A stretch of 64,000 nt of DNA, taken from Escherichia coli (GTDB lineage Bacteria > Pseudomonadota > Gammaproteobacteria > Enterobacterales > Enterobacteriaceae). Where the stretch lies: the NCBI RefSeq assembly GCF_013122565.1, contig NZ_CP053258.1, one strand, 5' to 3'. Positions 1-5,276 of the stretch are shown here, in pieces. The stretch's first letter is position 1, and every line of letters starts with the position of its first letter. The notes beneath the pieces were generated by a model, which saw only the letters and a program-made list of their open reading frames with translations, was not told the DNA's origin and did not search any database. A program made the position numbers and the translations under genes.

Positions 1-375
1 ATAGCTGCCAATTTCAATATTGCTGCACATGACGCCCAGCAGCACCGAACGGTCGTCCGCGAGCACCGAGTAGTTATGCATGGTGTTACCAATGGTGCCA
101 CCCGCAAACTGATGGGTAATCAGGTTTTTCTGTTTTAGTTCCTGATAAAGCGCTTCGGCTACGTCATCCTCAATCACCAGTGAATGCCCGGCGCTTAATC
201 CATAACGCTCAATGAATTCATCATCCACTTTCGCTTCAATATCGACCAGCGTTTGATCGATACCCACTACCCAGGCAGCGCTGGTTTCGTTTTCTGGCTG
301 GAATTGCTGAAGCAGCGGATCGCGTGCATTTACGGGGAAGTAATGTTTGGATTTACGTTTACCGGGAAATTTCAT
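1..375 (-). CDS. gsk: inosine-guanosine kinase, N-terminal part (gene continues beyond window start)
   Basis: Reverse-complement translation from ATG at 373-375 reads MKFPGKRKSKHYFPVNARDPLLQQFQPENETSAAWVVGIDQTLVDIE..., recognised as Gsk; divergent from aes as in K-12. Absent from ORF track because it runs off the edge. Confidence 0.85.
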   Translation of the reverse strand, partial: MKFPGKRKSKHYFPVNARDPLLQQFQPENETSAAWVVGIDQTLVDIEAKVDDEFIERYGLSAGHSLVIEDDVAEALYQELKQKNLITHQFAGGTIGNTMHNYSVLADDRSVLLGVMCSNIEIGSY

Positions 376-526
376 GGTTGTTTTTACGGGTGGTTAACTG
401 AGCGGCGAATGTTAACACAATCTGACGGGAGCGCGCGAGACGCAGCCAGTTTCAATATCAGCAGGCGGGATCGCATTTTCATGGCAGTGGTTCCTTACAA
501 TGACGTCATTTGAAAGGAGTTTTTGC

Positions 527-1486
527 ATGAAGCCGGAAAACAAATTACCCGTTCTGGACCTTATCTCTGCTGAAATGAAGACCGTTGTGAATACTCTTCA
601 GCCGGATTTACCGCCCTGGCCCGCTACGGGAACGATTGCTGAGCAACGACAGTATTACACGCTTGAGCGCCGAATCTGGAATGCGGGCGCTCCAGAAATG
701 GCAACCAGAGCTTACATGGTTCCAACAAAATATGGGCAGGTGGAAACACGTCTCTTTTGTCCGCAGCCAGATAGCCCGGCGACGCTATTTTATTTGCATG
801 GCGGTGGTTTTATTCTCGGCAATCTCGATACCCACGATCGCATCATGCGCCTTTTGGCAAGCTACAGCCAATGTACGGTGATTGGCATTGATTACACCCT
901 TTCACCTGAAGCGCGTTTTCCGCAAGCGATAGAGGAAATTGTGGCTGCCTGTTGTTATTTCCACCAGCAGGCGGAGGATTATCAAATCAATATGTCCCGC
1001 ATTGGCTTTGCCGGTGATTCCGCAGGTGCCATGCTGGCGCTCGCCAGTGCGTTGTGGTTGCGTGATAAACAGATCGATTGCGGTGAAGTTGCGGGCGTTT
1101 TGCTGTGGTATGGGCTTTACGGATTACGGGATTCCGTGACACGTCGTCTGTTGGGCGGTGTCTGGGATGGCTTAACGCAACAGGAGTTGCAGATGTATGA
1201 AGAGGCGTATTTAAGCAACGACGCGGACCGCGAGTCGCCGTATTACTGTCTGTTTAATAATGATCTCACTCGCGAAGTTCCGCCCTGTTTTATTGCCGGG
1301 GCGGAGTTCGATCCGCTGCTGGATGACAGCCGTCTGCTTTACCAGACGTTAGCGGCGCATCAGCAGCCCTGTGAGTTCAAACTCTACCCAGGCACGCTGC
1401 ACGCCTTTTTGCATTATTCACGGATGATGAAAACCGCCGACGAGGCTCTTCGCGACGGCGCTCAGTTCTTTACCGCTCAGCTTTAG
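527..1486 (+). CDS. aes: acetyl esterase (alpha/beta hydrolase, HGGGF oxyanion motif, GDSAG nucleophile motif)
   Basis: ORF 500-1486; internal Met giving [12 protein letters not shown]... and 319 aa matches Aes; HGGG and GDSAG motifs visible. Confidence 0.93.
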
Positions 1487-2445
1487 CGATACGCGGCAAC
1501 AAGATTAGCCATCATTTCGATATGTTCCGGCGTGGCATTAAGCGCCGGAATATATTCATATTTTTTCCCGCCCGCACCGAGGAAGACCTCACGGTTTTGC
1601 TCGGCAATCTCTTCCAGCGTCTCCAGACAATCCGCAGCAAAGCCCGGGCACATCACCTGAATATGACCTACGCCTTTTTCTCCGAGCATTTTCAGCGTTT
1701 CGTCGGTATAAGGCATCAGCCAGGGTTCCCGGCCAAAGCGCGACTGAAAGGTCATCATCACTTTTTCCGGTGCCATCCCCAATGCGGAAGCCAGTTCACG
1801 AGTCGTTGTGCGGCAACGTTGCGGGTAATCATCGCCTTCATCGGCATAACGCTGGGGAATGCCATGATAAGAGAGCAGCAGCAGATCCGGTTCGCCATGT
1901 TTGGCAAAAGAAGCGCGTACGCTGTTCGCCAGTGCATTAATGTAATCGTGGTTATCGGCGTAATCACGTATAAACGATATCCCCGGAATGCTACGTTTGC
2001 GCGCCAGAATGCGTGCCAGTTCATCCCATACCGCACCGACCGTTGAACAGGAGTATTGCGGATAAAGCGGCAGCACCACAATATGATCTACATGCTCTGC
2101 CAGGAGTTCATCTACGGCGCTTTCCAGTGATGGCGAGCCGTAGCTCATTCCCAGCGCTACGGGCGTCTCCGGTAAACGTTGTGCCAGCGCCTGCTGTTGC
2201 TGGCGGCTGTAAACCATCAGTGGCGAGCCACCTTCCATCCAGACAGAGGCATACAGCTTCGCCACACGCGGCGAGCGCAGCGGCAAAATCACGCCGCGCA
2301 GCAATGGCCACCATAACAACCGTGAGGTATCAACCACGCGTCTGTCGCTTAAAAATTGTTTCAGATAGCGTTTTACCGCTTCAGGTGTGGGGGCATCGGG
2401 CGTACCCAGGTTTGCCAGCAGGATACCGGTTTTAGTCTGACGCAT
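1483..2445 (-). CDS. hemH: ferrochelatase
   Basis: 320-aa [31 protein letters not shown]... recognised as HemH; position between aes and adk as in K-12. Confidence 0.95.
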
Positions 2446-2576
2446 TACCGCCTCTTATCGATTCAACTTGTTGATAATTGTAGCGGAAAAGTGAAGAAGA
2501 AGAACTAATTGCTGTAAGAGGTATTGCCTGAGGAGGATGAGCAGACCTGCCCGAAAGCAGATCTGCTGCGGCTTGA

Positions 2577-3293
<717 letters not shown>

Positions 3294-3401
3294 TCAAGAA
3301 AGGCACCTGAGGCTGAAACGGTTAATGGCGAGATAATTTGCGGAAAGTGCAGATGATGAAAAGAAAAATGCCGGATGACACAAAGGTCATCCGGCATGAC
3401 A

Positions 3402-5276
3402 TCAGGAAACCAGCAGCTGGTTCATACGACGAATAAACAGGTTCGGATCTTCCAGCGTGCCGCGTTCTGCCAGCAGCGCCTGATCCAGCAGCAGTTCTAC
3501 CCACTCGCTGAACTTGGCTTCATCTTCAGTCTCTGCCGCACGTTTCACCAGTACGTGATCCGGGTTCAGTTCGAAGATGTATTTCACTTCTGGCACTTTC
3601 TGGCCCGCCGCAGCGAACAGTTTCGCCATCTGGGTGCTCATTTCATCCGCGTCGGTCGAAACGATCGCTGGCGTATCGGTCAGACGGTGAGTGAGACGGA
3701 CATCTTTCACGCGCTCGCCGAGCAGGGCTTTCACACGGTCGATGAACGGAGTCAGTGCTTTCTCCGCTTCTTTCGCGCTCTCATCAACTTCGTCAGCCAG
3801 TTTTTCCAGCGACTCGTCAACTTTAGACACCGACTGGAACGGTTTACCGTCGAACTCAGTCAGATAGTTCATCATCCACTCATCGATGCGGTCGGAAAGC
3901 AGCAGAACTTCGATGCCTTTCTTACGCAGCAGTTCCAGGTGCGGGCTGCTCTTCGCTGCCGCATAGCTGTCTGCAGTGATGTAGTAGATTTTCTCCTGCC
4001 CTTCTTTCATGCGGGAAACGTAGTCTTCCAGAGACACGGTCTGCGCAGAAGAATCGGTATGAGTAGAAGCAAAACGCAGCAGTTTGGCGATCGCTTCCTG
4101 GTTAGCGAAATCTTCTGCCGGACCTTCTTTCAGTACCAGGCCAAACTGTTGCCAGAAGGTCTGGTATTTTTCCGCGTCGTCTTTGGCCAGTTTTTCCAGC
4201 ATTTGCAGCACACGCTTGGTCAGCGCATTGCGCAGGTTACGCGTTACCGTGCTGTCCTGGAGGATTTCACGGGAAACGTTCAGCGGCAGATCGCTGGAGT
4301 CAATCAGACCACGCACGAAGCGCAGATAGTTCGGCATGAACTGTTCTGCGTCGTCCATGATGAACACACGCTGAACATACAGTTTCAGGCCGTGTTTATG
4401 ATCACGGTTCCACATATCCCACGGAGCCTGGGACGGGATGTACAGCAGGCTGGTGTACTCCTGCTTACCTTCAACACGGTTGTGGCTCCAGGTCAGCGGA
4501 TCGTTAAAGTCGTGGGCGATGTGTTTGTAGAACTCTTTGTACTCTTCATCGGTGATTTCCGACTTGTTACGAGTCCACAGCGCCTGCGCTTTGTTAATTT
4601 TCTCCCAGGAGATAACGGTTTCGCCGTCTTTCTCTTCGCGTTTTTCGATCTCTACCGGCAGCGCGATATGGTCGGAGTATTTGCTGATGATGGAACGCAC
4701 GCGCCAGTCATCGAGGAACTCGTCTTCGCCTTCACGCAGATGCAGGGTGATTTCAGTACCACGATCTTCTTTGGTGATGTCGGCAACGGTATATTCACCT
4801 TCGCCAGCCGATTCCCAGAACACGCCATTTTCTGGTTTTTCGCCTGCCGCGCGAGTACGCACGGTCACTTTGTCGGCCACGATAAACGCAGAGTAGAAAC
4901 CAACACCAAACTGACCGATCAGCTGGCTGTCTTTCGCCTGGTCAGAACCCAGGGATTCGAGGAATGATTTGGTACCGGATTTAGCGATAGTCCCCAGATG
5001 GTCGATCACTTCGTCGCGGGTCATCCCCACGCCGTTATCGGAGATGGTCAGCGTGCGCTTGTCTTTATCGAAAGAGACACGAACGCGCAGTTCGCCATCA
5101 CCTTCGTACAGGTCCGGGTTAGAGAGCGCACGGAAACGCAACTTGTCCGCCGCATCGGAGGCGTTAGAGATAAGCTCACGCAGGAAGATTTCTTTATTGG
5201 AATAGAGAGAATGGATCATCAGGTGCAGAAGCTGTTTCACTTCTGACTGAAAACCGCGAGTTTCTTGTCCTTTCAT
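3402..5276 (-). CDS. htpG: Hsp90-family molecular chaperone HtpG
   Basis: 624-aa [45 protein letters not shown]... recognised as HtpG. Confidence 0.97.

Follow-up and report, generated by a model that had tools for sequence, protein, structure and literature searches.

Convergent overlaps between bacterial genes show a spike at a length of 4 nt, and the published 4-nt overlaps are CTAA, TTAA, CTAG or TTAG tetramers (Lillo and Krakauer 2007, PMC2174442). This pattern, [C/T]TA[A/G], is the modal class of convergent overlaps (PMC2174442). According to the tables of that study, which covered 58 genomes, 672 of the 1890 convergent overlaps (1890 minus 1218) have a length under 5 nt, for which geometry leaves 4 nt as the only option. 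E. coli contributed 58 convergent overlaps; rho-independent terminators were predicted inside the partner coding sequence in 21 E. coli overlaps, 19 with one such terminator and 2 with two (PMC2174442). A second way in which transcripts are ended has been described for Rho-dependent genes, in which termination is diffuse and occurs past a rut-like region, after which the RNA is trimmed 3'-5' to a protective stem-loop that is free of a U-tract (Dar and Sorek 2018, PMC6061677). Collision-type bidirectional terminators located between convergent genes have been described as Rho-independent (Ju et al. 2019; 10.1101/2022.10.23.513370).

The convergent genes aes and hemH of E. coli lie in a stretch of 64,000 nt (contig NZ_CP053258.1 of assembly GCF_013122565.1), which was analysed as a whole and is referred to here as the window. 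It starts in the core region of E. coli, where the gene order is gsk (minus strand), aes (plus), hemH (minus), adk (minus) and htpG (minus). The features discussed below are listed in Table 1.

Table 1. Positions in the window of the two genes, their overlap and the RNA features assigned to the ends of their transcripts
Feature	Position	Strand	Remarks
aes CDS (acetyl esterase, 319 aa)	527..1486	+	RefSeq and family model; stop TAG at 1484-1486
hemH CDS (ferrochelatase, 320 aa)	1483..2445	-	stop TAA; plus-strand TTA at 1483-1485
TTAG tetramer with both stop codons (4-nt tail-to-tail overlap of the ORFs)	1483..1486	.	sequence
Published steady-state 3' terminus of hemH-sense RNA	1268..1277	-	K-12 499223-499232, dominant 499229 = window 1271
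Stem-loop on hemH-sense RNA (CUCCGCC...GGCGGAA), without a U-tract	1279..1305	-	antisense to aes codons 251-260
hemH-sense RNA stretch rich in C and poor in G	1033..1233	-	C/G 1.67-2.24; contains the published Rho region
15-bp hairpin, predicted stem of an aes intrinsic terminator	1519..1556	+	arms 1519-1533 and 1542-1556, loop 1534-1541; antisense to hemH E297-I309
CATATTTTTT tail, T6 at 1561-1566	1557..1566	+	antisense to hemH K294-K295-Y296

The plus strand ends aes with CAG CTT TAG (1478-1486) and the minus strand ends hemH with TAT (Tyr319), CGC (Arg320) and TAA. Positions 1483-1486 are shared by the ORFs and positions 1484-1485 by the stop codons, each of which is the first in-frame stop of its gene. 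The two opposite-strand stop codons have the central TA in common, as in the [C/T]TA[A/G] pattern. A sequence-only reading of the window had placed both stops at these positions and had noted that the genes leave no space for a terminator between them; the coordinates are exact, and the shared TTAG, which is also present in RefSeq, leaves zero intergenic DNA. In the list of ORFs, the entries are 500..1486 (+) and 1483..2445 (-), so that the aes ORF starts mechanically at 500, as opposed to the RefSeq start at 527. The aes reading frame extends beyond its annotated start by 27 nt, up to an ATG (window 500-526), and similar extensions occur in other Escherichia loci; the start at 527 is backed by the family model and by RefSeq.

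The same 4-nt overlap is found in the RefSeq annotations of strain 120899 and of K-12 MG1655 (b0475/b0476; hemH 498055..499017, aes 499014..499973). Among 5426 complete E. coli genomes, a 501-nt query that spanned the junction had matches in 5424, and a 46-mer centred on TTAG was present without any change in at least 5017. Two of 5426 matching places for the aes-hemH junction were on plasmid-labelled records, which may reflect pieces of chromosome carried by large plasmids or the labelling of the assemblies. The overlap would be an artefact of annotation if Aes or HemH ended earlier than assumed. Arguing against this possibility are full-length matches of both proteins to their families, since Aes scores 624 bits against the NCBIfam acetyl-esterase equivalog NF007547 (residues 1-319, 321-position profile) and HemH 448 bits against the equivalog TIGR00109 (residues 1-319, 322-position profile). 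Moreover, the C-terminus of crystallised E. coli Aes (4KRX/4KRY) is identical (...FFTAQL), and HemH ends with ...YR at residue 320 in nearly all sampled Enterobacteriaceae, including genera that lack aes. Both proteins reach the stops in question, no re-annotation of a gene end opens a gap, and the artefact, to which we attach next to no probability, is effectively refuted. The overlap is genuine and conserved, and it joins two core genes of E. coli that are unrelated to each other. It is also already known, being annotated in the reference and belonging to a class the cause of which has been published.

The TTAG geometry follows from the partial self-complementarity of stop codons in convergent genes that abut. 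With a pyrimidine directly before it, a TAA makes the opposite strand read TA[G/A] at an offset of one base, and an abutting ORF in this frame must stop there. At the end of hemH, CGC-TAA is read as TTA-G on the opposite strand, which provides an in-frame TAG for aes one base over. The aes/hemH overlap is therefore ordinary once convergent genes abut.

A scan with HemH as query, restricted to one genome per species, yielded 72 loci. Convergence of aes and hemH was found in Escherichia, in Salmonella enterica (subsp. arizonae and diarizonae) and in Citrobacter, and one Trabulsiella strain has an aes homologue of 53% identity at the same position. The stops abut, with a 4-nt overlap in most aes-bearing loci, those of Salmonella and most of those of Citrobacter included; the variants are overlaps of 10 or 11 nt, a gap of 0 nt and a gap of 2 nt. 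The length of Aes ranges from 319 to 324 aa across the loci and its stop is still flush with that of hemH. The Aes tails vary in length and sequence, with for example ...ARIKMLR in Salmonella and ...QQLDGAQR in some Citrobacter; in two Salmonella loci and in six Citrobacter loci the aes stop is -10 to +2 nt from the hemH stop. Varied tails with flush stops are consistent with repeated re-capture of stops from the antisense strand of the hemH end. Aes is absent from Pluralibacter, Superficieibacter, Pantoea, Rosenbergiella, Mixta and most Trabulsiella, in which a co-directional gsk is located 55-145 nt after hemH. As gsk comes directly after hemH in these genera, the position of aes between the two, turned against hemH and without a spacer, reflects a gain of this gene or its loss elsewhere. 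Two Escherichia loci deserve separate mention. In Escherichia albertii NBRC 107761, aes appears to be split into ORFs of 233 aa and 112 aa, the distal one of which overlaps hemH by 26 nt; in Escherichia sp. E1V33, aes appears to be disrupted, with approximately 83 N-terminal residues left, and HemH is two residues longer (...AAYRQS). The hemH hairpin described below is retained in both loci (-21.7 and -21.4 kcal/mol, respectively).

Without a spacer, any termination signal, and hence the end of each transcript, must be located inside the coding sequence of the partner. The sequence-only reading had named 3' untranslated regions embedded in the neighbouring coding region as one consequence of the overlap. 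This interpretation is supported, since the published 3' end of hemH-sense RNA lies inside aes and the predicted aes hairpin lies inside hemH.

For hemH, the end of the transcript is shown by public data and by base composition. Window positions equal 500500 minus the K-12 coordinate, with no indels and with 25 substitutions over hemH and aes. RNAtag-seq of cells grown in LB revealed a terminus labelled 'aes, Antisense', significant in three libraries (PMC10687069 Supplementary Data 3), which is 212 nt past the hemH stop. This steady-state 3' end comes immediately after a stable stem-loop with a free energy of -17.6 kcal/mol and a maximum U-run of 2 (PMC10687069 Supplementary Data 3), likely the structure that protects the 3' end of hemH mRNA against exonucleases. 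Farther downstream, the untranslated RNA is C-rich and G-poor and thus rut-like. A Rho termination region was mapped to K-12 499332 (+), 'antisense aes', with a Rho score of 4.07 and p = 6e-10 (Adams et al., PMC7815308 Supplementary file 2), which corresponds to window position ~1168, approximately 100 nt beyond the hemH-sense terminus; as the Rho regions were derived from data with and without bicyclomycin in 800-nt windows, this position is coarse. In the published data, readthrough at the hemH 3' end is increased by bicyclomycin. By this account, hemH transcription runs antisense into aes, where it is stopped by Rho approximately 300 nt downstream in the C-rich, G-poor stretch, and the RNA is then trimmed to the stem-loop that lacks a U-tract. 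Synonymous entropy in aes shows a mild dip over this stem-loop (0.84, rank 3 of 174, the mean being 1.11), too little to make a convincing case for a constraint imposed by the hemH structure. A canonical hemH terminator closer to the stop, GCGCCGUCGCGAAGAGCCUCGUCGGCGGUUUUCAUCAU with its GGUUUU (~1455-1424, minus strand), was also considered; it was not called by the terminator scan and was dropped because it folds no better than shuffled sequences (z = -0.9), the published Rho region and terminus being preferred.

At the other end of hemH, the spacer that separates it from adk (window 2446-2576) comprises 131 nt, compared with 235 nt in K-12 and strain 120899. The spacer of the latter two contains a GC-rich repeat (CCCCTCGCCCCCTCGGGGAGAGGGTTAGGGTGAGGGG) and a hairpin, GGCCGGATATTCATTCGGCCTTTT, which has been labelled an adk 'distant primary' 3' end (PMC10687069). 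In the window, the spacer contains a different short hairpin (AGCAGATCTGCTTTCGGGCAGGTCTGCT) without a T-run on the adk strand. Strains may therefore differ in how adk is terminated and in the 5' leader of hemH. In K-12, Rho termination was mapped to a region at 498060 (score 4.0, p = 1e-17), barely within the start of hemH (window ~2440), and Term-seq detected a 3' end at K-12 497939, 116 nt ahead of the hemH ORF (PMC7815308). These data suggest that hemH transcription is attenuated or prematurely terminated in the leader. The 3' end upstream of hemH falls in the segment that is missing from the strain of the window.

The end of the aes transcript we infer from a hairpin within the last 27 codons of hemH. 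Hairpin and tail together (1519-1566) occupy the region 33-80 nt past the aes stop and correspond to hemH codons 294-309. With 15 pairs, 6 of them G-C, and a free energy of -23.3 kcal/mol (z = -5.6), to which none of 200 shuffled sequences came up, the nascent aes RNA contains a predicted stem-loop that is stable and GC-rich. Among 331 sites in the 64-kb window that combine a hairpin with a T-rich stretch it ties for the most stable, and it equals or exceeds in stability canonical terminators elsewhere in the window, for example that downstream of htpG. The site with which it ties, at ~4117-4172 on the plus strand and antisense inside htpG, has a hairpin of -23.3 kcal/mol followed by TATTTTTC and may be due to chance. 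The strand opposite to the aes hairpin, i.e. the hemH-sense RNA, folds with only -14.5 kcal/mol, because three G.U pairs turn into A.C mismatches, and it is without a U-rich tail. The tail after the aes stem reads CAUAUUUUUU. The site was flagged by a simple terminator scan, but its U6 begins 4 nt past the extended stem and 11 nt past the GC-rich core, whereas a textbook terminator would have 7-8 U-rich nt right after the stem. An interrupted T-run (ATATTGCTT) is seen in loci of the Citrobacter freundii complex in which HemH has KQ or QQ. An aes-sense 3' end at the hairpin is contained neither in supplementary file 1 of PMC7815308 nor among the listed entries of PMC10687069, a result that low aes expression would equally produce. 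The SMRT-Cappable-seq and TERMITe supplements have no entries for hemH or aes, an Rfam scan of window positions 1-4000 at E <= 1 returned zero matches, and a literature search on hemH, aes, gsk and adk yielded nothing relevant.

The hairpin might have arisen solely as a by-product of the ferrochelatase motif (YEYIPALN...PEHI), of codon bias and of ancestry. According to this scenario, aes would be terminated elsewhere, for example by Rho in the region 1537-1686 or through decay. Synonymous recodings of the same HemH peptide indeed fold with a mean of -12.8 kcal/mol and occasionally reach -25 kcal/mol. The peptide alone thus predisposes to a hairpin, which in part is a by-product of the HemH motif. 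The observed hairpin, however, is more stable than 99.7% of the recodings, and every aes-bearing locus lies in the lower tail of this null distribution; the fraction of recodings at or below the observed value is 0-0.22 in all aes-bearing loci and 0.05-0.98 in loci without aes.

A second line of evidence concerns synonymous sites. In the 26 hemH sequences from aes-bearing loci, the 15-codon windows that start at codons 294-299 have the lowest synonymous entropy of the gene (0.48-0.52, which takes ranks 1-6 of 278; the mean of the gene is 1.00). Codons I299, P300 and A301 are invariant in this clade, as are only 7% of comparable codons, and the P-E of PEHI is invariant in aes-bearing loci and variable elsewhere. 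In 13 Enterobacteriaceae without aes, the entropy of the same window is 0.98, equal to the gene mean of 0.98 (rank 101 of 243). The synonymous minimum therefore coincides exactly with the hairpin and is confined to aes-bearing genera, although the divergence of the two sets is similar (1.00 vs 0.98). Two further points speak against a mere by-product of the peptide: the G.U pairs make the hairpin specific for aes-sense RNA, and it ties for the strongest combination of hairpin and T-tract in 64 kb.

Other observations favor the by-product. In 25 distinct sequences the helix retains 94% pairing, but compensatory double changes amount to one cell, which is no better than in shuffles; in the absence of support by covariation, conservation of the structure rests on the constraint at synonymous sites. 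This constraint is confounded with phylogeny because the aes-bearing genera form one clade. The hairpin is kept in two Trabulsiella loci that lack aes, the U-run is broken in several Citrobacter, and aes 3' ends are missing from the listed published termini. In addition, the aes-sense RNA past the hairpin (1537-1686) has a C/G ratio of 1.7-1.9, which would suit Rho. When these arguments are weighed against the clade-specific minimum and the strand specificity, a hairpin that plays no part in ending aes is considered rather unlikely. In what we take to be the more plausible model, hairpin and T-run probably form a functional terminator for aes, such that aes transcription would end at a structure resembling an intrinsic terminator, with a U-rich tail, that is active in the aes direction only. 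Rho could serve as a back-up beyond the hairpin. More tentatively, a near-palindrome of the ferrochelatase motif may have been co-opted in Escherichia, Salmonella and Citrobacter and sharpened, at synonymous sites and at P-E, into a strand-specific intrinsic terminator of aes, a history that we put forward as possible but somewhat doubtful. If it applied, approximately 16 hemH codons (K294-I309) would carry a second function that insulates hemH from antisense transcription.

The sequence-only reading had also mentioned collision of convergent transcription. In such a mechanism, head-on encounters of RNA polymerases would determine both 3' ends and the hairpin would be the site of pausing or collision. 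Convergent genes with zero spacer provide a suitable setting, and a published model assigns to a hairpin element the positioning of head-on collisions (10.1101/2022.10.23.513370). In contrast to what such a mechanism predicts, the hemH-sense end is found in a bicyclomycin-sensitive region, ~212 nt after the hemH stop and ~300 nt farther along than the hairpin; collision would, moreover, need appreciable transcription from both sides. Two 3' ends that are ~300 nt apart do not arise from a single bidirectional element, and a hairpin located upstream of the hemH stop, inside the hemH ORF, cannot serve to terminate hemH. The data can be explained without collision, which is regarded as quite improbable. 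A shared bidirectional terminator was rejected as well: there is zero intergenic DNA to accommodate it, the hairpin on the hemH-sense strand has -14.5 kcal/mol and no U tail, and the hemH end is ~300 nt away.

The account favored here thus has three parts: the overlap results from the complementarity of stop codons, hemH is ended by Rho and trimming inside aes, and aes would be ended at the hairpin inside hemH. As a whole, it is considered reasonably probable. Under these premises the mature aes and hemH RNAs would be complementary over ~300 nt (window ~1271-1566), and 3' untranslated regions that are complementary over such a length might, if they exist, also couple the fate of the two mRNAs.

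The overlap itself has little significance beyond bookkeeping. The locus offers a worked example of how convergent genes cope with zero intergenic space, one transcript being stopped inside the neighbour by Rho and then cut back to a protective stem-loop, the other probably ending at a hairpin the sequence of which also encodes the neighbour's protein. A modest addition to what is known is this dual-coded hairpin in hemH and its clade-specific constraint. For studies that assume synonymous sites to be neutral, the synonymous dip at hemH codons 294-309 is a minor warning, and the locus provides a testable case of an RNA signal located antisense within an important gene, hemH.

In comparison with the systems described at the outset, the aes/hemH overlap is a full instance of the 4-nt class of Lillo and Krakauer and does not differ from it; what is added here is the phylogenetic history of the overlap, with its small variants, in Escherichia, Salmonella and Citrobacter. 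The aes hairpin resembles the embedded terminators of the same authors in that a GC-rich stem and a T-run are located inside the partner gene, in this case for one gene of the pair only. Unlike those terminators, it has a U-tract that is offset from the stem and a clade-specific synonymous constraint. The hemH end follows the pattern of Dar and Sorek, with a stem-loop of -17.6 kcal/mol, a U-run of at most 2, a rise in C/G and bicyclomycin-dependent readthrough downstream, but the 3' untranslated region, the stem-loop and the rut-like region are all antisense within another coding sequence and not intergenic. With pairs of genes served by bidirectional terminators, aes and hemH share convergent transcripts that overlap at their 3' ends. 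They differ from such pairs in that they have no shared intergenic element, in that their transcripts end ~300 nt apart, each beyond the stop of the partner, and in that one of the two ends depends on Rho.
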